Below are positions 9,954-24,817 of a DNA stretch of 64,000 nucleotides, in pieces. The notes beneath the pieces were generated by a model. That model was given only the letters and a program-made list of their open reading frames with translations. It had not been told where the DNA came from and did no database searches. How positions within the stretch are numbered: position 1 is the first letter of the stretch; the number at the start of each line of letters is the position of its first letter. Where the stretch lies: NCBI GenBank assembly GCA_037720395.1, contig JBBJMR010000004.1, positions 10,535 to 74,534 of the forward strand, in the 5' to 3' direction. The DNA comes from Polyangiaceae bacterium (GTDB lineage Bacteria > Myxococcota_A > Polyangia > Polyangiales > Polyangiaceae). Made by a program: the position numbers and the translations under genes.

Positions 9954-11558
9954 ATGAGCGAGGCGACGATGATGTCCGTACCGCTGACCCTGGAGCGGAT
10001 CGTGGAGCGCGCCGCGGGGCGCCTCGGCCACGTGGAGGTCGTCTCTCGCCGACCGGACCGTTCCCTGCATCGGACCACGTACGGCAAGGTGGCCGAACGG
10101 GCGCGCCGGCTGGCCCGCGCCCTCGTCGCCGCGGGGGTGAAGAAGGGCGACCGGGTGGGCACGCTGATGTGGAACCACGCCGAGCACCTGGAGGCCTACT
10201 TCGGCATCCCGCTCGCCGGCGCCGTCCTGCACACCCTCAATCTGCGCCTGCACCCGGACGAGATCGCCTACATCGCCAGCGACGCCGGCGACGTGCTGGT
10301 GCTCGTCGACGAGGTGCTGCTGCCGCTCTGGGAGAAGGTCGCGCCCAGGGCCAGCGGCGTGCGCCAGGTGATCGTCGTCGGGGCCAGCAAGCCGCCTGCC
10401 GCGCCGATGCTCGACTACGAGGCCTTCCTCGCCGGCGCCGACGACGCCACGCCCTTGCCGACCCTCGACGAGAACGACGCGCTCGGCTCCTGCTACACCA
10501 GCGGCACCACCGGCCGGCCCAAGGGCGTGATCTACACGCACCGCTCGACGCTGCTGCACACGCTGGTCACCGCCTTGCCCGACTCGCTCGATGTCTCGCG
10601 CGACGACACGCTGCTGCCAGTGGTGCCCATGTTCCACGTCAACGCCTGGGGCCTGCCGTACGCCGCGGCCATGGTCGGCGCCAAGCTCGTCTTCCCCGGC
10701 CCGCACCTCGACCCCACCAGCCTGCTCGAGCTGATGGAGGGCGAGCAGGTGACCATCGCCGCCGGCGTCCCCACCATCTGGCTCGGCATCCGCGATGCGC
10801 TGGAGAAGCAGCCGCGCAAGCTGGCGTCCGGCGTGCGCATGGTGGTCGGCGGCGGCGGCGCCGAGCAGCTCATCCGCGACTTCGACCGCCTCGGCCTGCG
10901 CCTCATCCACGCCTGGGGAATGACCGAGACCTCGCCGGTCGGGCTGGTCTCGCGCGTGCCGCCCGAGCTCGCCGGCAAGCCCGACGACTTCACCTACCAG
11001 CTGCGTGCCCGCCAGGGCGTGCCCCCGCCGCTGGTCGAGGTGCGGGTGCGCAACGAGGCCGGAGAGGTCCCCGGCGATGCCAGGACGTCCGGCGAGCTGC
11101 AGGTGCGCGCGCCCTGGGTGGCGGCGCGCTACGCCGACGGCGCCACGCCGGAGCGCTGGACGGACGACGGTTTCTTCCGCACCGGCGACGTGGCCACCGT
11201 CTGCCCCCACGGCTTCGTGGCCCTCACCGATCGCGTCGCCGACCTCATCAAGTCCGGCGGCGAGTGGATCGCCTCGCAGCAGCTGGAGAGCGCGCTCATG
11301 GCCCACCCGGCGGTGCAGGAGGTGGCGGTCATCGGCGTGCCGCACCCCAAGTGGAGCGAGCGGCCCCTGGCGGTGGTGGTGCTTCGCCAGGGGCAGCAGG
11401 CCAGCCCCGACGAGCTGCGCACCTTCGTGGCCGACAAGTTCGCCAAGTTCTGGCTGCCGGACGCGTTCGTCTTCGCCGAGTCCATCCCGAGGACCTCGAC
11501 CGGCAAGATGAAGAAGACCGACCTGCGCGCGCAGTACAAGGACTGGGCCTGGGCCTGA
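9954..11558 (+). CDS. Long-chain fatty-acid--CoA ligase (AMP-dependent synthetase)
   Basis: AMP-binding motif YTSGTTGRPKGV, later TGD and SGGEWI motifs, and a C-terminal STGKMKK lysine motif. Confidence 0.9.
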   Translation: MSEATMMSVPLTLERIVERAAGRLGHVEVVSRRPDRSLHRTTYGKVAERARRLARALVAAGVKKGDRVGTLMWNHAEHLEAYFGIPLAGAVLHTLNLRLHPDEIAYIASDAGDVLVLVDEVLLPLWEKVAPRASGVRQVIVVGASKPPAAPMLDYEAFLAGADDATPLPTLDENDALGSCYTSGTTGRPKGVIYTHRSTLLHTLVTALPDSLDVSRDDTLLPVVPMFHVNAWGLPYAAAMVGAKLVFPGPHLDPTSLLELMEGEQVTIAAGVPTIWLGIRDALEKQPRKLASGVRMVVGGGGAEQLIRDFDRLGLRLIHAWGMTETSPVGLVSRVPPELAGKPDDFTYQLRARQGVPPPLVEVRVRNEAGEVPGDARTSGELQVRAPWVAARYADGATPERWTDDGFFRTGDVATVCPHGFVALTDRVADLIKSGGEWIASQQLESALMAHPAVQEVAVIGVPHPKWSERPLAVVVLRQGQQASPDELRTFVADKFAKFWLPDAFVFAESIPRTSTGKMKKTDLRAQYKDWAWA

Positions 11559-11613
11559 GCGCTGCAGCGCGTCGCCTTCCGCGGGTGGCGCGCTAAAGGT
11601 AGCGGTGTCGCCG

Positions 11614-12396
11614 ATGAAGTGGAATGATATTCCAAGTTGGTGGGGCCCGGCAGGGCGCCTACCGTTCGCCGTGGCTCCGCTGCGACGCGATGGAAAGGAG
11701 CGCCGCGATGCGCTGCTCGACGCGGCGCTGCGCTGCTTCGCGCGCGACGGTATCATGGCCACCGGCATCGAGCAGGTGCGTCGCGAGGCCGGGGCCAGCC
11801 CCTCGAGCGTCTACCACCAGTTCAAGGGGTTGCCCGAGCTGGTGCTGGCCCTCCTGCAGCGCACCTTCGAGCGATTGCTGGGGGCCATCGCCGCGCGTGT
11901 CACCGCCGCCCGCACCGCACGGGGCGCGGTGGAACGGCTGGTGCTCGGTCACCTGGAGTGGGTCTTCGCGCACCGTGACGAGGCGCGCTTCATGTACCAG
12001 GCGCTGGCGCTGGAGCTGCGCGCGGACACGGCCCGCGCCCTGACCGCGCGCAAGGCCGAGCTGCTCGGGCCCATCGCCGCGGCCCTCGGCACGTTCGTGG
12101 CGAGGGGCGAGCTGCCCAACTGGCCGCCGCTGACGTTCGACGTGGTCCTGCTCGGGCAGAGCCACGAGTCCTTCCGCCGCTGGCTCGGCGGCGCTCCGCT
12201 CGAACCGGCCTGGATGCGGCGGGCGATGCCACGCATGGCCTGGGAGAGCCTGGGCGGCGCGCAGCCGGTGGCGCCCGGGCGGCCTCGGCGACGCGCCCGC
12301 CCACCCGGCGCAGGCCGTAGGACCTTGCCAGACTACGCCTTCCATGCGACGCATGCGGCCGGGGTCGCCTCGGGCGGCCTCGCCAAGCGCCACTAG
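11614..12396 (+). CDS. TetR-family transcriptional regulator
   Basis: N-terminal HTH LDAALRCFARDGIMATGIEQVRREAGASPSSVYHQFKG. The Arg-rich C-terminal tail runs 10 nt into the tRNA, so the true stop is uncertain. Confidence 0.8.
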   Translation: MKWNDIPSWWGPAGRLPFAVAPLRRDGKERRDALLDAALRCFARDGIMATGIEQVRREAGASPSSVYHQFKGLPELVLALLQRTFERLLGAIAARVTAARTARGAVERLVLGHLEWVFAHRDEARFMYQALALELRADTARALTARKAELLGPIAAALGTFVARGELPNWPPLTFDVVLLGQSHESFRRWLGGAPLEPAWMRRAMPRMAWESLGGAQPVAPGRPRRRARPPGAGRRTLPDYAFHATHAAGVASGGLAKRH

Positions 12397-12460
12397 CTCA
12401 GCTGGATAGAGTGTCGGCCTCCGAAGCCGAAGGTCGCGCGTTCGAATCGCGCGTGGCGCG
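12387..12460 (+). tRNA. tRNA-Arg (anticodon CCG)
   Basis: 74-nt cloverleaf folded by hand. Acceptor GCGCCAC/GTGGCGC, D arm GCTC-AGCTGGATA-GAGT, anticodon arm TCGGC-CTCCGAA-GCCGA, T arm GCGCG-TTCGAAT-CGCGC. CCA is not encoded. Confidence 0.9.
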
Positions 12461-12461
12461 C
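12415..12461 (+). repeat. Direct repeat copy 1 (attL-like; 3' part of tRNA-Arg)
   Basis: 47 bp identical to 16525-16571. Confidence 0.95.
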
Positions 12462-12571
12462 TGAAGTCGGGTTTCGAACCACGGGCGAGCCGTAGCCGTT
12501 TGCCCCCTGTGTCAGAGTCGTTGCCGCATCGCCGCATCTCCGTGATCGCGGCGAGCAGGCGGCGGCGTCAG

Positions 12572-13267
12572 TCATACGGAGGGTCGATTCTTTGGTGGCT
12601 TGGGCGGCACCGGAAATGGCGCGTCCGCCTGCTCTTGCACCTCTTGCTCGAGCTTCTTGAGCTTCCTGCCCTCCACGGTGTTCTCCAGCTTGAGCCTCTC
12701 CCTTTCGGCCCTCAGCCGTCGCAGTGCATCCTCGATTCCTTGCCGCTCTGCCTGCCCACTCGTACCTGAGGGCGCTCCGACTTCGTCGTCCTTGAGGTCG
12801 AAGATCTTGAAGAAGTCGTCTTTCAACTTTTCCTCCGGCGTAGGGTCGACGATGCGCCGTTCTGTCTCGTTGATGTCCTTGATGCGCTTCTCGCGCCGCT
12901 CGATGTCCTCGCGCAGGCGGTCCATCTCTTCGAGCTTCTCGACGAGCTCGGCAAGGCCGGGAGGCGAGACAGTGGGACCACCGATGCGCACGGTCCACGC
13001 CCCTCCCATCACGCGGCCCCCGTGGCCGGTCTTCTCGTGGAGGCGAGCGGCGGGCCTGCCGCCGATGAGGACCGTGCCCGAGCCTTCGAGGATGGCGTCG
13101 CGGCGCGAAGTCATGCAGGACGCCAGGTCTCCTGCGCGAGCTGCTGGTTTCGCCTCGATCTGGACCCGCGGAAAGCCGCGGGGCTGCACGGGACCGCCGA
13201 CGTGGGGCGCCGGGTCCACGGACGGGCAGATGTGTGGGTCACCGACACGAGCTGCGGGGCGGCTCAT
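12572..13267 (-). CDS. PAAR-domain protein with charged coiled-coil C-terminal extension
   Basis: Three PAAR motifs (PAARVGD, PAARAGD, PAARLHE) in the first ~95 aa. They are followed by a ~135-aa Glu/Lys/Arg-rich heptad-like tail encoded by lower-GC DNA. ATGA overlap with the upstream ATPase gene. Confidence 0.8.
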   Translation of the reverse strand: MSRPAARVGDPHICPSVDPAPHVGGPVQPRGFPRVQIEAKPAARAGDLASCMTSRRDAILEGSGTVLIGGRPAARLHEKTGHGGRVMGGAWTVRIGGPTVSPPGLAELVEKLEEMDRLREDIERREKRIKDINETERRIVDPTPEEKLKDDFFKIFDLKDDEVGAPSGTSGQAERQGIEDALRRLRAERERLKLENTVEGRKLKKLEQEVQEQADAPFPVPPKPPKNRPSV

Positions 13268-14265
13268 CGGCTCGCTCCGAGGACACGGATCTGTCGGCTC
13301 TGCAAGTCGCGCAGAATGCCGGCCGAGGAGGTGGCGACGATGATCTGATTGTTCTTGCCCAGCCCGCCGAGGCGACGCAGCGCCTCCGCCTGCTCTACGG
13401 GATGAACGTGCAGCTCGGGCTCGTCAATCAGGACTACCGAATTGTCGAGCCGGAGTCGCACGAACGTCGTGGCGAAGAGCAGCGCCTGGCGTTCCGACGC
13501 CGAAAGCTCGTTGAGATCGACGTGATAGCCGCCCTGGCGCGCGAAGCGCAGCGTGCTACCAGCTCCACTCGGAACCAATCCGTCGATGCGAATGGTATCG
13601 GTGAGCTGGTGCAGCGCCGACCGATATGGCTCGAGGCTATCCCTCGAAGGGGCGCCGAGCACCACCCCGTTGTCGCGCAGCTCTGTCAGCACGTCCGTTG
13701 CCGCACGCATCGCCGCCTCCTGGAGGGTCCCGGGCACCGCATCGTACTTTCCGGGGTGTTTGCCCATCCTCGATGCAGCTTCGAGCGCCAGCGGCAGCGG
13801 TGGCTGGGGCGGCCCGCCGCCGCCCATGTCGTGCAGGTCGCGGTTGGCGGGGAAGTACTCGAACTTGCCCAGGCCTTCCGAGCGGTGGAACTGCTCGAAC
13901 AGGCGGCGCAGGTCGGCGGTGCCGTCGGCGATGCGGCTCGTGTCGCCGTCGATACGCAGCTCCACATCGCATCGCACGGACGGGGCGCCCGCGAAGCGTC
14001 GCTCCTGGTCGGTCAGCACCCAAGAGCTCGCGATTCGGCCGGTGGTGCTACCGCGGCGCAACAGTCGTTCTGGGCCCGGGGCCGGCCCGTAGCCACCCAC
14101 GTGCTCCTTGTTCGCGCAGATGGCCTCGAGCAGCGCAGTCTTGCCCGTGCCGCCAGGCCCGGTGACGGCCACGACGTCGAAGGGCTCGCCGGTCTCATCG
14201 GCGAAGCTGTACGTCCCGTCTGGGCAGCCGAGGATGTTCTCGAGTGTGATCTTGGCGAGCTTCAT
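13264..14265 (-). CDS. ABC/SMC-type AAA ATPase (AAA_15/AAA_21-like), no fused effector domain
   Basis: Walker A GPGGTGKT, signature-like LSASERQ, Walker B VVLIDEPELHVHP, and Q-loop/H-loop-like IIVATSS. Confidence 0.8.
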   Translation of the reverse strand: MKLAKITLENILGCPDGTYSFADETGEPFDVVAVTGPGGTGKTALLEAICANKEHVGGYGPAPGPERLLRRGSTTGRIASSWVLTDQERRFAGAPSVRCDVELRIDGDTSRIADGTADLRRLFEQFHRSEGLGKFEYFPANRDLHDMGGGGPPQPPLPLALEAASRMGKHPGKYDAVPGTLQEAAMRAATDVLTELRDNGVVLGAPSRDSLEPYRSALHQLTDTIRIDGLVPSGAGSTLRFARQGGYHVDLNELSASERQALLFATTFVRLRLDNSVVLIDEPELHVHPVEQAEALRRLGGLGKNNQIIVATSSAGILRDLQSRQIRVLGASR

Positions 14266-14273
14266 TGGGCGCT

Positions 14274-14702
14274 TCAGTTGAGCTTGATGACCGAACCGTT
14301 GACCACGACCGGGCCGCCGCTCTGGATCTGAATCCCCCCGGGCGTGAGGGTGATCGAGGAGCCACCGGACACGAGACGCACCTCACCGTTGCCTTGGGCC
14401 AGGATCTTGCCGGCGATCATCTGCACGATGCTCTTGGCCATCACCCACAGACCACCGGTGTCGATGAAGTGGTTGGTGCTGCCGTCTCGGCGGACGTCCC
14501 CGGCCACGAGCCCCATGGTCTCCGAGGCGTTGATGGTCACCGTCTTGGCGGTCACGTTGTACGGCCCCGTGGACGTCGATACCGAGCCGGCGCTGATGCT
14601 CTGCCCGCCGGCGAGCTCGGAGACGGCATCAACAAAGCCGAGGCGGACGAGCGTGACGTCATCGAGTGCCGCGCCGGCCAGGAGGCGTGCGTTCAACGCC
14701 AT
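14274..14702 (-). CDS. Small beta-helix protein resembling the extreme C-terminus of VgrG/gp5 spikes
   Basis: 142 aa. Short-period beta-strand repeats end in GGSSITLTPGGIQIQSGGPVVVNGSVIKLN, similar to VgrG C-terminal repeats by my recollection (not searched). Confidence 0.5.
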   Translation of the reverse strand: MALNARLLAGAALDDVTLVRLGFVDAVSELAGGQSISAGSVSTSTGPYNVTAKTVTINASETMGLVAGDVRRDGSTNHFIDTGGLWVMAKSIVQMIAGKILAQGNGEVRLVSGGSSITLTPGGIQIQSGGPVVVNGSVIKLN

Positions 14703-15127
14703 GGGCCATGCTCCTTGTCCGCGCCAAGGACCGGCTCGAACGGGAAGACCTCCGCCGGCGCCTGGCCGTGCAAGTCGACGGTATCCTCGTCGCCGACCGT
14801 CTTGCGCCTATCCGCGCCAGACCCCGCACCCATCGCCGCCCGGGAGCGCACGGCGGCCGCGTAGGCCGAACGGAACGAGCGCAAGAGCTCGCTGCTTCCC
14901 CCGGCGGCGGTGAGCTTCGCCGACCAGCGCTCCTCCAGATCCAGGAGGCGCGCTCGCGTCAATCCGAGGGCGGTCAACACCTTGGACTCGTTTGCGAAAG
15001 GCTCCTCCAGCGCCGCGACGACCCGCGCGTACTGCGCGATGTCGTCCGCCGCGCCCGCCGTTGCCGCGCCCTGTTCCTCTGCCGTCAGCTCACCGTCCCG
15101 CCGCTGCTGCTGCTGCTGCGTGCTCAT
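14693..15127 (-). CDS. Hypothetical protein (poly-Gln N-terminus)
   Basis: 144-aa ORF with good GC3. Overlaps the downstream gene by 10 nt. No recognisable domain. Confidence 0.4.
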   Translation of the reverse strand: MSTQQQQQRRDGELTAEEQGAATAGAADDIAQYARVVAALEEPFANESKVLTALGLTRARLLDLEERWSAKLTAAGGSSELLRSFRSAYAAAVRSRAAMGAGSGADRRKTVGDEDTVDLHGQAPAEVFPFEPVLGADKEHGPWR

Positions 15128-15321
15128 GCGTGTTCATCGGTCCGGCGCGCGCTCAGGCGTCAAGAATCGCACCTCGGGGGGCGGCGCCGGCCGGCCACCG
15201 GCAGGGCCTCGTGTACCCTGCCAGCGCCGGCGCGAGGGGGGGGCCGTTGCCAGGAGGGGTGAGGGGAAGGCGGTTTCCATTGCCTTCGCTGCCCGAGCGC
15301 GCGCTCGCGATGCCCGCGATG

Positions 15322-15634
15322 CTACTCGGCGGTGGCACGGAGCCGGCGCACGGTGCGTCTCTCGCCGGTTGCCAGCGCCTTGGACACCTTCCAGAACGCG
15401 CGCCGCAGCTCGACGCCGACGGCGAGCGCCAGATCCTCGACGGCGCGCCGCCACCATCTGCCCGTCGAGCAGGGGCTGGTCGATCCGGAGGAAGTCGACG
15501 AGGGTCTCGAGCGACGCGGGAAGCTCGAGGAGCCCGCTCGGGACGGGCGGCTCCATCGAGTCGCCATCGACATCGACGCTCTGCGTCGCGAGGAGCCACG
15601 CGAGGTACGCGGTACGCAGATCGCCGCGTATCAC
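15322..15634 (-). pseudogene. Frame-broken hypothetical gene fragment
   Basis: N-terminal part MIRGDLRTAYLAWLL...LRIDQPLLDGQMV lies in one frame. A plausible continuation AVEDLALAVGVELRRAFWKVSKAL...TAE-stop lies in another, with the junction near 15440. Confidence 0.3.
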
Positions 15635-15660
15635 GGGTCAGTTCGCGGATACCTCCGCCG

Positions 15661-16026
15661 TCAACCGATGGGCAGTCGACGGACGCGCGCTCGCTGCCCA
15701 TCGGTACTGATGACGGCGCCAGCCGCCAGGTCCTCGCCGCAGCTTCGAATCGTCGCCTCGATCACCGCTGCGGCCTCTGCGGCTCGAAGGCCCTCCGCCC
15801 GAAGCCGGACCACGGACGGCGCTGTGGCACCCGAGAGTGCGAGGAGCGCGTGGAAGTCAGCATCGAGCGTGACGACGACGCGGTTGGAAGCGCGGGCCCA
15901 ATCGAGGATTGCCCTGTCGTCAGCCCTCGCCATGCCGAGGTCCCCAACGTGCGTGGCATCGAAGCCAGCCGCTTGCAGCAGGGCCACGGCCGAACGGGGC
16001 AAGCCTTGGTCGAGAACCAGTTTCAT
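15661..16026 (-). CDS. DUF5615-like PIN-fold putative toxin
   Basis: 121 aa starting MKLVLDQGLP, with VVVTLDADF. 4-nt overlap with the upstream DUF433 gene, the usual pairing. Confidence 0.6.
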   Translation of the reverse strand: MKLVLDQGLPRSAVALLQAAGFDATHVGDLGMARADDRAILDWARASNRVVVTLDADFHALLALSGATAPSVVRLRAEGLRAAEAAAVIEATIRSCGEDLAAGAVISTDGQRARVRRLPIG

Positions 16027-16259
16027 CCAGCCTTGGACAGCTCGATCACTCGGTCATCCATGGCCGCTGCGGCGTATGCGAGGGCCTGACGGATATCCTC
16101 ATCTTCGAGCTCGGGGTATTCCCGGTGAAGCTCGTGGCGATCTGGATAGGTGGCGAGCGCTTCCAGCACGCGCCGCACCGTCAAACGCATGCCTCGGATG
16201 CAGGGCTGCCCGTTCATCAATCCGCCGTCCGAGGTGATGCGATCGAAGATAGTGGCCAT
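16023..16259 (-). CDS. DUF433-domain putative antitoxin
   Basis: 78 aa from the ATG at 16259. Contains the typical DUF433 core GGLMNGQPCIRGMRLTVRRVLEAL and a C-terminal YPELEDEDIRQALAYA. Confidence 0.7.
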   Translation of the reverse strand: MATIFDRITSDGGLMNGQPCIRGMRLTVRRVLEALATYPDRHELHREYPELEDEDIRQALAYAAAAMDDRVIELSKAG

Positions 16260-16524
16260 GGGGTCCGAAGAGTGTACCTCACGAGGAGCCGCCGGACCCG
16301 CTCGCGATGGGCGCCGACATCCTCCGCGTGCTGCTGCGCCCTCACGGTGTTGGCCATCGGCCGCCCGTCGGGCGGCGCTCGAGCAGCACGGTCTCGGCCA
16401 GCTCCCGACCATGCGTGTGGGCAAACCTCGACCGGATGGCCAGCGCCCGCAGGTACCTCTCGGCCATGGTCCCCAGCCGGTCCCCACAGCGCCTCCAACC
16501 TCGCGTCTTCGCTCCATTCGCCTC

Positions 16525-16571
16525 CGGCCTCCGAAGCCGAAGGTCGCGCGTTCGAATCGCGCGTGGCGCGC
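16525..16571 (+). repeat. Direct repeat copy 2 (attR-like; orphan tRNA-Arg 3' fragment)
   Basis: 47 bp identical to 12415-12461. No matching tRNA 5' half upstream. Confidence 0.95.
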
Positions 16572-16715
16572 CCAGGGATCGTAGGGGGGTCGCAGCGCAG
16601 GCGGCGCGGCGGCTGGGACGGAGAGTGGACCCTTGCCATAGGTGCGGCGAAGACGACGCCGGCGCTCATTCGCCCGTGAGCGCGATATGCGGCGGCGTCG
16701 TTCCTCGCCAGGTCC

Positions 16716-18290
16716 TCACTCGTAGAGGAAGACTCCGCGCAGGTCCTCGGTGATCGCCAGGGGCGTGCCGCCCTGTTTGATCGAGGTGGCGCGGAACTGG
16801 TAGAGCATGCCGGCGTCGAGAGCGGGCCCCTCGTAGGTCACACTGACCGTCTTGTCGCCGCTGACGCCGGGCACGTCGAGCTTCTCCCAGACCAGGGTGC
16901 CGAACGCGTCGTACACGCGCACCTCGTAGTGATCCTCGCCGGAGTCGTCGCTCCAGACGAGCTCCGGCGTGCCGCTGACGATTGCCTCGTTGTCGGGCGA
17001 GACCACGTCGAGCGCGCCGGTGACCTTGAAGCTCTGGTCGAGCGTCTGGGCCCCCTCGGAGACGACGATGTGCACGATGTCCGTTCCACCGATGGCGGTG
17101 TCCGGATCGCGCACCAGGAAGTCGTTCTCGAGCGCGGCCAGCACCACGTAGTTGCCGTCCGGCACGCCTTCGAACGCGAAGTCGCCGCTGATCGGCCAGA
17201 CCCGCAGCCCGGGCGGTGCCTCGCCCCGCGCCGCGTTGGGCACGAACGTCTCGTCCACGACCAGGATCACGCTGGTGTCCTGCCCGTCGCCGGGGTTGAC
17301 GATCTCGATCTTGCCGGAGATCGCGGAGGTGGCCTGTCCCGTGGCGGCGAGGTCGACGCCCTCGGTGGTGGCGCCGGCGGTGACGTCGGCGCTGGTGCCG
17401 GCGAGCTGCAGGTACTGTTTGTAGCCGCGCACCGACACGCCGCTGCCGGCGGCGACGTTGAAGACGGTGTACGTGCCGTCGATGTCCGCCACACCGCTGG
17501 CGCCTCCGCCCGCGTCGATGGCGCCGCCGGCGACGACCAGCGTGCCCGCGGGACGGTCCGCCAGCACCTTGCCCGAGATGGCGCCCAGGCCTTCGGTGCT
17601 CGCCAGCTCCAGCATGCCGATGTCCGTGGCCGTCGACTCGACGTTCGGCGGATCGCCGGCGGCCTCCGACATCTCGATCGGCAGCGCGATGCGCGGCGCG
17701 GTCGGGAAGGTCTGATAGTCGGCGGCGTCCGATCGCAGCGAGACCTGGTGCGTGGTGAGCGAGCCATCCTTGTTGCGCGGGACCGGCACCTTCAGCGTGT
17801 AGCTGCCGTCGGGATCGGTGACGGCGATGCCGGAAGCGGCCGAGAAGTTCGCGTCGCGCGCCAGCACGTGCGCGCCGCCGATGGCTGCCTTGCTGGCCAG
17901 GTCGAACACCTTGCCGGTGAGCGTCACCGGTGGGAAGCACGCCGGGGTGCCGCCGACGACAGTCTCGCAAACGACGTCCGGGCTCGCACACCCGGTGTCG
18001 TACTCGGGCGAGCAGTAGCAGCCTGGGTCGCCGTCCGGCGTCTCGGCGCACTCGAGCCCGGGCCCGCAGCCGGCACGGGTCTCGGGCGAGCAGAAGCACG
18101 CCTTCTTGCCATCCCGGCCTTCGCGACAGACCTGGCCGCCGCCGCAGGCCTCGTCCCCTTCGCAGGTCCCGTCGTTGTCGTTGTCCTCGTCGTCTCCGCA
18201 GCTGGTCGACGCCGCCAGCGGCGCGACGATGAGCGCTGCCATCCATGCGATTCGGGCGAACTGGGAGTGGGCACGTTTCGGGGTCACCAT
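16716..18290 (-). CDS. Secreted lipoprotein with Cys-rich N-terminus and carboxypeptidase-regulatory-like beta-sandwich repeats
   Basis: Lipobox LAASTSC. Cys-rich segment, then repeats such as TLTGKVFD...VTDPDGSYTLKV. Start chosen at ATG 18290. Confidence 0.6.
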   Translation of the reverse strand: MVTPKRAHSQFARIAWMAALIVAPLAASTSCGDDEDNDNDGTCEGDEACGGGQVCREGRDGKKACFCSPETRAGCGPGLECAETPDGDPGCYCSPEYDTGCASPDVVCETVVGGTPACFPPVTLTGKVFDLASKAAIGGAHVLARDANFSAASGIAVTDPDGSYTLKVPVPRNKDGSLTTHQVSLRSDAADYQTFPTAPRIALPIEMSEAAGDPPNVESTATDIGMLELASTEGLGAISGKVLADRPAGTLVVAGGAIDAGGGASGVADIDGTYTVFNVAAGSGVSVRGYKQYLQLAGTSADVTAGATTEGVDLAATGQATSAISGKIEIVNPGDGQDTSVILVVDETFVPNAARGEAPPGLRVWPISGDFAFEGVPDGNYVVLAALENDFLVRDPDTAIGGTDIVHIVVSEGAQTLDQSFKVTGALDVVSPDNEAIVSGTPELVWSDDSGEDHYEVRVYDAFGTLVWEKLDVPGVSGDKTVSVTYEGPALDAGMLYQFRATSIKQGGTPLAITEDLRGVFLYE

Positions 18291-23932: not shown

Positions 23933-24817
23933 GTGGGCACCGTCGGCGTCGGGCTCGGACTGCGCTGGGACTTCCTCGAGGACGTCCTGGAGCGCATGGA
24001 GGGCGACGCCGGGGCCCTGGCACCCCTTTCGTTCTTCGAGGTCTCGCCGGAGAACTACATGCGCCGCGGTGGGTACTACCCGTCGGCGCTCGAGCGCGTG
24101 GCCGCGCGCTTCCCGCTCGTCGCCCACGGGCTGACGCTGTCGCTCGGAAGCCGCGATCCCTTCGACCTGGCTTACCTCGGCGAGCTGCGCGCCTTCCTCG
24201 GGCGCCTGGACGTGTCGCTCTACAGCGATCACCTCTGCTTCTCGGGCGACGGCGGACGGCTGGTGCACGAGCTGCTGCCTCTGCCGCTCACCACCGCCTC
24301 GGCGGTGCACGCCGCCGAGCGCCTGTGCGAGGTCTCGGGGCGCCTGGAGCGCGCGGTGGCAGTGGAGAACGTCACCCACTACCTGATCCCCGGCGCCGCC
24401 GCCCTCGACGAGGCGGACTTCATCGCCGAGGTGCTCGAGCGCGCCGACGCGCGCCTTGTCCTGGACGTGAACAACGTGGTCGTCAATGCAAAGAACTACG
24501 GCTTCGACGCGCGTCGCTTCCTGGAGCGCTTGCCGCTCTCGCGCGTCGTCCAGGTGCACGTCGCCGGGCACGAGTGGTCCGAGGACGATGGCCTCTTCCT
24601 CGACAGCCACGGCGCGCCCGTCGACGATCCGGTCTTCGCACACCTCGAGTGGCTGGTGGAGCGCACCGGGCCGGTGCCGGTGCTCCTGGAGCGCGACCAC
24701 CAGGTGCCGCCGCTCGACACGCTGCTGGAGGAGGCGACGCGCGTGGAGGCCGCCTACCGCCGCGGGCTCTCACGGCGCGCCGTGGACGCGCCGGCGCTGG
24801 GTGCGAGCCATGGGTGA
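23933..24817 (+). CDS. DUF692 family (MbnB/TglH-like) multinuclear non-heme iron enzyme
   Basis: Family hallmarks [71 protein letters not shown] and LLERD. Confidence 0.85.

Follow-up and report, generated by a model that had tools for sequence, protein, structure and literature searches.

A probable decayed vgrG-ATPase-PAAR spike cassette on a tRNA-integrated islet of a Polyangiaceae bacterium

The DNA considered here is a 64,000-nucleotide stretch (referred to as the window) of an 80,872-bp contig from a Polyangiaceae metagenome-assembled genome (MAG), and its positions 12572 to 15127 carry four tightly packed genes on the minus strand. A first-pass annotation of the window had described these genes as an orphan spike-tip module in which a VgrG-like protein, an ATPase and a PAAR protein are combined, with no genes for a type VI secretion system (T6SS) or a phage tail nearby. 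We found all four open reading frames (ORFs) at the positions assigned to them before. They encode, in the direction of transcription, a 144-aa protein (14693..15127), a 142-aa remnant of the spike protein VgrG (14274..14702), a 333-aa stand-alone ABC-type ATPase (13264..14265) and a 231-aa PAAR protein (12572..13267); the first two genes overlap by 10 nt, the second and third lie 8 nt apart and the last two share the 4 nt ATGA, in exact agreement with the earlier description. The motifs quoted there were recovered as well: the C-terminus GGSSITLTPGGIQIQSGGPVVVNGSVIKLN of the 142-aa protein, the Walker A sequence GPGGTGKT and the Walker B sequence VVLIDEPELHVHP of the ATPase, and the three PAAR motifs. 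The tail of the PAAR protein does lie on lower-GC DNA (0.63 vs about 0.72). Of the main proteins of the window, 30 were scanned, and none of these had a Pfam match to a component of a T6SS, of an extracellular contractile injection system (eCIS) or of a phage tail. TssA-M, Hcp and a full-length VgrG were likewise not found in these 64 kb, which are the only host DNA examined. As argued below, the locus is probably a decayed copy of an auxiliary T6SS spike cassette, composed of vgrG, ATPase and PAAR genes, that is conserved in Polyangia.

The kinship of the 142-aa protein to VgrG, proposed in the first-pass annotation, is far closer than its Pfam score suggests. Its match to DUF2345 (27.7 bits) lies slightly below the cut-off of 30.7, whereas phmmer, run exhaustively against 1.84 billion representative proteins, returned as best match a 640-aa VgrG from a Polyangiaceae MAG (P0039; MEJ7734120.1, annotated at NCBI as T6SS tip protein TssI/VgrG), and residues 26-142 of the stub are 86% identical over 117 residues to residues 524-640 of that protein (BLASTP). 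All-against-all BLAST placed residues 25-142 of the stub on the last ~120 residues of full-length VgrGs (630-860 aa), and its C-terminus is 43% identical to that of the VgrG encoded at a further related locus (L002). At the other end, residues 1-30 of the stub (MALNARLLAGAALDDVT-LVRLGFVDAVSEL) align in BLASTP with residues 1-31 of P0039 (MALNARLRLGAALGGTTSVIRLELSDGISEL) and are about 65% identical to them. Given these matches at both ends, the alignments identify the ORF as an internally deleted VgrG, with an in-frame loss of ~497 residues (about 32-528). Its 30 N-terminal VgrG residues are joined in frame to the final ~112, the predicted PAAR-binding tip of the beta-prism, at a junction that falls between SEL and AGGQS (about 14613/14612).

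Read in this way, the deletion has taken away the gp27-like hub and the OB fold, along with the first part of the beta-prism. The hub domain Phage_GPD is present in related VgrGs; Pfam gave no match to it on the 142-aa protein, and no hub sequence was found anywhere in the 64 kb when we searched them by tblastn with eight full-length VgrGs, whose sole match was the C-terminal piece at 14277-14630. The gp5-like OB fold (Phage_base_V) is absent from the 142-aa protein according to Pfam and falls within the deleted portion (~32-528) of P0039. Retained is the C-terminal tip region of the beta-prism, to which both the 86% identity with P0039 and the DUF2345 score refer. Since the window derives from a MAG, one may ask whether the deletion is a mis-assembly or a minority variant and whether the true genome carries a full-length vgrG. 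We consider this very unlikely: the reading frame runs through a clean junction, the genes next to it are intact and contiguous, and the joined segments lie ~1.5 kb apart in the relative, so that a long exact repeat would be needed to bring them together, and the protein alignment suggests none.

The 142-aa protein is not a new minimal needle, since it is a deletion derivative of a full-length VgrG. Nor did a stand-alone family of mini-VgrGs emerge: the exhaustive phmmer search yielded no stand-alone relatives of ~140 aa apart from a 93-aa fragment in L001, and the other short matches were fragments at contig ends or split VgrGs that keep the N-terminal part (L168-L171). In these four ENA/Logan contigs two or three successive ORFs, whose stop and start codons overlap, together encode VgrG, the pieces corresponding to Phage_GPD, to the OB fold with the trimer domain, and to a 130-aa C-terminal tip; the same split occurs in contigs from several samples and may reflect either a gene that is stably split or a frameshift that they share. 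L001, a 513-bp ENA contig with 1.6x coverage, is, with 69% identity, the nearest relative of the stub at the DNA level. Directly before the conserved LELKAQRDF motif it shows a TAA in frame and nine residues of unrelated sequence, and an ATPase start immediately follows its vgrG stop; at this coverage, L001 may be a second 5'-shortened vgrG in front of an ATPase gene.

A precedent for a VgrG-like placeholder is provided by TvpC, a VgrG mimic of Tvp accessory complexes that holds PAAR until full-length VgrG takes over (Monlezun et al. 2026, PMC13373197). TvpC contains an OB fold, belongs to DUF3540/DUF6484 and works with the DUF2169 protein TvpA and with DUF4150 PAAR-like proteins (PMC13373197). 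The stub resembles TvpC in being a small, distal-VgrG-like protein that is devoid of the gp27 hub and potentially able to hold a PAAR protein. One may thus picture it as a functional mini-spike that trimerises and, like TvpC, keeps the PAAR-tail protein (perhaps together with the ATPase) in a pre-complex until a full-length VgrG takes over. Such a role would fit the in-frame nature of the deletion, the retained start codon and translational coupling, the G+C content at third codon positions (GC3) of 0.88, the better conservation of the C-terminal 117 residues than of the N-terminal 30, and L001 as possibly another shortened form. We nevertheless regard it as unlikely. The OB fold that accompanies the beta-prism in TvpC is missing from the stub, as are the DUF3540/DUF6484 signature and any DUF2169 or DUF4150 partner at the locus, and membership in the TvpC family was rejected on the first two of these grounds and because the window holds no DUF2169 gene. 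Moreover, TvpC is an independent, conserved family while the stub is a one-off derivative of a normal VgrG; no family of such short proteins was found beyond the L001 fragment, the closest relative is full length, and a deletion has a one-in-three chance of being in frame anyway.

The ATPase was recognized by Pfam AAA_21 (45.6 bits vs a cut-off of 27) and contains the ABC motifs GPGGTGKT, LSASERQ and VVLIDEPE. An AlphaFold2 (AF2) model built with the family alignment reached a mean predicted local distance difference test (pLDDT) value of 92.2, and the top PDB matches of this model in Foldseek were PtuA proteins of Septu and retron I-A (TM about 0.7, E 1e-14). A profile of the ATPase searched against PDB chain sequences found AriA (2e-11), PtuA (9e-11) and the Rad50 head (4e-10). 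The protein is therefore like PtuA and AriA in its ABC/Rad50-like head fold and its Pfam affiliation (AAA_21 and AAA_15), although at ~130 residues less than PtuA it represents a minimal ABC head. It differs from PtuA and AriA in being encoded after vgrG, in having neither the HNH protein PtuB nor the TOPRIM protein AriB as a partner, and in its catalytic residues. Walker A is kept in nearly all family members, and its lysine is conserved across the 21 loci that we surveyed for motifs in the family alignment (loci from L002-L020 and L088-L095). The catalytic glutamate of Walker B is present at only 7 of these loci, that of the window among them, and is replaced by Q at 8, by R at 3, and by A, T and H at a single locus each; none of the members surveyed has the H-loop histidine. 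ABC ATPases altered in this manner should bind ATP and dimerise, and hydrolyse ATP poorly. The motif pattern thus suggests that the family binds ATP without hydrolysing it efficiently, and with the catalytic glutamate missing from most members and the H-loop histidine from all, the ATPase would be expected to work as a switch or scaffold and not as a motor. Some members carry C-terminal extensions of 150-350 aa (at 8001-10055 of L015, and in P0017 and P0021, the latter two proline-rich), in which no Pfam domain was found.

The PAAR protein matched PAAR_motif (PF05488) with 73.3 bits against a cut-off of 27, and the alignment shows no variation at the PAAR ligands H12, C14, H22, C51 and H82; its score for the NCBIfam T6SS_PAAR_dom equivalog (32.6 vs 124) is below the cut-off. 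Residues 1 to about 100 form the PAAR cone (12968-13267), and the remaining ~130 aa (12572-12967) make up a helical tail rich in Glu, Lys and Arg; no toxin domain was recognized in the protein. The AF2 model has helices at residues 105-140, 144-155 and 170-215 with pLDDT values of 73-93 and is weak in the cone (mean pLDDT 60.6). We rejected the possibility that the tail is a truncated toxin, since it is conserved at full length in P0086 (238 aa), P0087 (253 aa) and P0088 (227 aa), with which it is colinear over nearly the full length; the PAAR protein of L088 is colinear with it as well. P0088 is encoded directly after the ATPase gene of L172, whereas P0086 and P0087 are presumed to lie on the contigs of the ATPase homologues P0006 and P0004, respectively. 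By these comparisons, the helical-tail form of PAAR is a conserved subfamily and a part of the cassette; in other cassette types PAAR is fused to HExxH metallopeptidase-like C-terminal domains. The 144-aa protein is homologous to the product of the gene that directly precedes vgrG in L005/L006, L013, L014 and L017 and has more distant matches in L009, L012 and L091. It had no match in Pfam, NCBIfam or PADLOC, and judged by its recurrent position the gene is a conserved part of the cassette, too.

A word-indexed search retrieved ~25 full-length homologues of the ATPase, roughly 300-340 aa long and 32-58% identical, and a 10-sequence alignment of the ATPase was used to scan loci from one genome per species and from Joint Genome Institute (JGI) metagenomes. 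In these scans full-length members were found only in Polyangia-type DNA, namely in Sorangium, Minicystis (two copies), Byssovorax and Polyangiaceae MAGs. Two contigs are oddly binned (L011, 2.3 kb, in a Gemmatimonadales MAG, and L015 in a Candidatus Villigracilis MAG); both have Polyangia-like GC, and their assignment outside Myxococcota is likely to be mis-binning. VgrG is encoded upstream of the ATPase at 19 of the 20 family loci that had at least 1 kb of upstream DNA, as opposed to none of 107 control loci, which matched only the generic ABC C-terminus (AAA_21/ABC) and contained neither VgrG nor PAAR (Fisher p = 1e-21 for the VgrG association, the loci not being independent of each other). 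A PAAR gene nearly always lies beside the family ATPase. In all-against-all BLAST the four proteins of the window group with the VgrG, ATPase, PAAR and upstream gene of 13 or more loci, and across 13 loci the pairwise identities of ATPase and VgrG are correlated (Mantel r = 0.80, p = 2e-4).

The order of the genes varies among the related loci. It is VgrG, small ORF, PAAR, ATPase in the P0009 loci and small ORF, VgrG, PAAR-toxin, ORF, ATPase in the P0011 loci, and VgrG is directly followed by the ATPase in L009, L012, L016, L018, L019 and L020. The order seen in the window (VgrG, ATPase, PAAR, with a 108-aa ORF that may stand between the first two) recurs in L008, L088 and L172, of which L088 and L172 are short contigs that offer a partial view. 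Cassettes of the window type with a helical-tail PAAR are also found in two NCBI MAG contigs, where linkage is presumed; for the three closest NCBI relatives (contigs of 11378, 33858 and 2757 bp) it is deduced solely from identical contig sizes. One related locus contains a second island bearing DUF4123 and DUF2169 adaptors, and in L020 a DcrB/DUF1795 (Eag-type) gene follows the ATPase; it is from these two loci that the T6SS affiliation of the family is drawn. T6SS genes have been reported to occur in Polyangiales (PMC10196010). An origin of the locus from a phage tail or eCIS was rejected in view of the missing tail genes and of the T6SS adaptor genes at some related loci.

The survey of ATPase neighbourhoods, which the first-pass annotation had suggested, thus revealed that VgrG and PAAR partners do co-occur with the ATPase, and the statement that the gene set matches no known one no longer applies: the same vgrG-ATPase-PAAR order exists in L008, L088, L172 and the two NCBI MAG contigs. 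The alternative raised there, a relic of a broken vgrG island into which the ATPase gene had inserted by chance, proved right in its first half, as the 142-aa ORF is an in-frame deleted VgrG by alignment, and wrong in its second, as a VgrG precedes the ATPase at nearly every family locus and at none of the controls.

The same neighbourhoods bear on the further suggestion that the module serves T6SS-independent defence or abortive infection, with a PtuA/AriA-like ATPase that senses invaders and with PAAR and the beta-helix as its partners. Among PADLOC and PDB entries the best matches of the ATPase are indeed PtuA (Septu, retron I-A) and AriA (PARIS), and the gene shares a small mobile islet with an adjacent toxin-antitoxin pair. 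The score of the ATPase for NCBIfam PtuA (NF041760) is 37.8 bits, however, against a cut-off of 500, and only its C-terminal 54 residues match. Neither PtuB HNH, nor a retron reverse transcriptase, nor a TOPRIM nuclease partner was present in the islet or among the neighbour genes checked at related loci; NCBIfam and PADLOC returned generic ATPase-level matches and no defence system for the islet proteins. Membership in Septu or PARIS was rejected on account of the missing nuclease and the low score. The relatives of the ATPase for which the upstream sequence is long enough follow full-length VgrGs, at some loci together with DUF4123, DUF2169 or DcrB/DUF1795 genes, while the generic AAA_21 loci contain neither VgrG nor PAAR. 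We therefore regard a defence role as extremely unlikely.

Among known systems the locus comes nearest to the auxiliary ('orphan') vgrG-PAAR islands of T6SSs, in which vgrG is followed by accessory genes and PAAR away from the T6SS core genes, and relatives of the locus carry the PAAR-HExxH toxin fusions and the DUF4123, DUF2169 and DcrB/DUF1795 adaptors of such islands. It is unlike them in three respects: its vgrG is a 142-aa in-frame stub, its PAAR protein ends in a helical tail with no recognizable toxin, and a conserved ABC-type ATPase, of a kind missing from the T6SS accessory proteins described so far, belongs to the cassette. A review of T6SS accessory factors from 2026 names only ClpV, the ABC-transporter-like protein TagT and Sfa2 as ATPases (PMC13584744), and our literature search found no paper that links an ATPase of the present kind to VgrG or PAAR. 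Compared with the known islands, the new element is thus the conserved PtuA-like ATPase.

What this ATPase might do in intact cassettes can be approached from its genetic context. As a tentative proposal, for which position, co-diversification and motifs speak, the ATPase may be a non-secreted accessory factor in the assembly or loading of the VgrG-PAAR tip: with ATP bound, its PtuA-like ABC head would form dimers and serve as a nucleotide-gated clamp or adaptor for the cognate tip. We favour such a role because the gene occupies an operon position typical of adaptors and co-diverges with VgrG, because the ATPase accompanies toxin-bearing, tail-bearing and plain PAAR proteins alike, and because a conserved candidate immunity gene is missing and the catalytic site is degenerate. 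Genes directly after vgrG often encode cargo effectors, and the position of the ATPase gene would equally suit a cargo effector carried on the spike, with the helical tail of PAAR as its tether; cassettes of the window type also lack a recognizable toxin domain that could fill this role. Yet no conserved downstream gene that could be an immunity gene for the ATPase was found at the related loci examined, and in the window the ATPase gene is flanked by the VgrG stub and PAAR only. The ATPase occurs, furthermore, in cassettes that already have a PAAR-HExxH metallopeptidase toxin, it diverges together with VgrG where typical effectors are swapped, and its catalytic site is degenerate. A function as cargo consequently appears improbable to us.

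We now turn to the DNA on which the cassette resides. A tRNA-Arg(CCG) gene was detected by ARAGORN at 12387..12461 on the plus strand, and its last 47 nt (12415-12461, the left attachment (att) repeat) are perfectly repeated on the plus strand at 16525..16571 (the right att repeat), 4110 nt away. This repeat has exactly two copies in the window, against none expected from shuffled sequences, and confirms the tRNA-borne islet put forward in the first-pass annotation. The islet (12462-16571, 4.1 kb) comprises the four genes of the cassette, 533 bp with no coding signal, and a DUF5615/DUF433 gene pair. The DUF5615 protein (15661..16026, minus strand, 91.9 bits in Pfam) is a PIN-like putative toxin, and the DUF433 protein (16023..16259, minus strand) is the putative antitoxin. 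The DUF433 match (68.4 bits) covers residues 94-149 of a 164-aa maximal ORF; this longest ORF is probably over-extended, the true start being the ATG at 16259, and the two genes overlap by 4 nt. Together they probably constitute, to judge from their domains, a toxin-antitoxin module that stabilises the islet. In the 533-bp stretch (15128..15660) no frame has the GC3 pattern of coding DNA and every minus-strand frame contains stop codons; its longest ORF has no Pfam match, and the stretch shows no similarity to any related locus that we fetched. The stretch may represent a promoter region or DNA in decay, and a scan for promoters and terminators found nothing.

The islet genes have GC3 values of 0.72-0.88, compared with 0.92-0.97 for most of the flanking genes. 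With its site at the 3' end of a tRNA gene, its perfect repeat, its lower GC3 and its toxin-antitoxin pair, the islet is like other tRNA-integrated islands that are stabilised by such modules; it is unlike them in measuring only 4.1 kb and in having no integrase or excisionase. Neither an integrase nor a remnant of one was detected in the islet, all ORFs of which are accounted for and whose gaps of 533 bp and 265 bp are devoid of coding signals and homologues; the islet would therefore be a remnant or be mobilised in trans. Related cassettes are not generally adjacent to tRNA genes. About 7 kb from the islet, at 23933-24817 of the window, lies a gene for a precursor-modifying enzyme of the MbnB/TglH/ChrH type (Pfam, 285.9 bits), which suggests a biosynthetic cluster for a ribosomally synthesised and post-translationally modified peptide.

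Several features of the related loci are recorded here as well. In L002 a second vgrG island (11459-16955) is located 2.5 kb downstream of the ATPase cassette and contains genes for a VgrG (828 aa), a PAAR protein, an FHA/DUF4123 adaptor and a DUF2169 protein. Conserved divergent genes for a Ser/Thr kinase, a 90-105-aa ORF and a Sigma70_r4-like protein lie upstream of the cassette on the opposite strand in L005/L006, L013 and L014; the set in L005/L006 includes a second kinase, and in L010 and L016 kinase genes are found after the ATPase as well. This neighbourhood could be regulatory or could reflect no more than the richness of Polyangia in kinases. While the tip of P0039 is 86% identical to that of the window, the ATPase P0005, presumed to be encoded on the same contig, is only 56% identical to its counterpart, a contrast suggesting that the cassette has evolved as a mosaic or that its parts are unequally constrained.

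Taken together, these observations let us sketch how the locus arose. An intact cassette consists of the small upstream gene, vgrG, the ABC-type ATPase gene and the PAAR gene or, in an alternative arrangement, of vgrG, a PAAR-toxin gene, in some cases an immunity gene, and the ATPase gene. One such cassette entered the chromosome on a small element that integrated at tRNA-Arg, with the 47-nt att repeats and the DUF433/DUF5615 addiction module; today the element is without an integrase, and its vgrG has lost ~497 codons in frame. The resulting stub could neither sit on the Hcp tube nor fit into the baseplate and might at most trimerise and bind the PAAR cone; with the gp27-like hub and the OB fold gone, the cassette would therefore be unable to build a spike of its own. 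The intact ORFs for the ATPase, the PAAR-tail protein and the 144-aa protein may act with a full-length VgrG encoded elsewhere, or await decay. We also considered that stub, ATPase and helical-tail PAAR might form a working unit in which the headless stub tip pre-assembles PAAR and the ATPase and hands them over to a VgrG encoded elsewhere in an ATP-gated step; we judge this to be quite unlikely.

Several points weigh against decay of a cassette whose ATPase is an accessory factor. The deletion is in frame, the start codon overlapping the upstream gene has been kept and codon bias is normal (GC3 of 0.88); the stub may thus still be translated and have a residual or new role. The possible short vgrG of L001, if real, hints that short forms recur, and the deletion is known from the assembly of one MAG alone. 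A cassette that combines a plain VgrG, the ATPase and a tail-only PAAR has no recognizable toxin, and some part of it may itself be the effector. The case for the accessory role is made up entirely of gene position, co-diversification and motif decay. Within the 64 kb seen, a T6SS of the host is unsupported. On balance, decay of a conserved cassette is the probable history of the locus.

As a relic, the locus of the window is itself of little consequence, although it offers a clean natural example of auxiliary T6SS modules that travel on tRNA-integrated mini-islands and then decay. The interesting part is the family to which it led, a small, Polyangia-restricted group of stand-alone PtuA-like ABC ATPases that are encoded in vgrG operons where the flanking DNA was long enough to tell. 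Should stub, ATPase and helical-tail PAAR form a working unit after all, this family would represent a new class of nucleotide-dependent loading factors for the T6SS spike, and the stub would be a naturally arisen TvpC-like placeholder. If the ATPase is an assembly or loading factor in intact cassettes, it would add a nucleotide-gated step to the arming of the T6SS spike and would provide a further case in which an ABC head of the defence type, as found in PtuA and AriA, has been reused as a scaffold.

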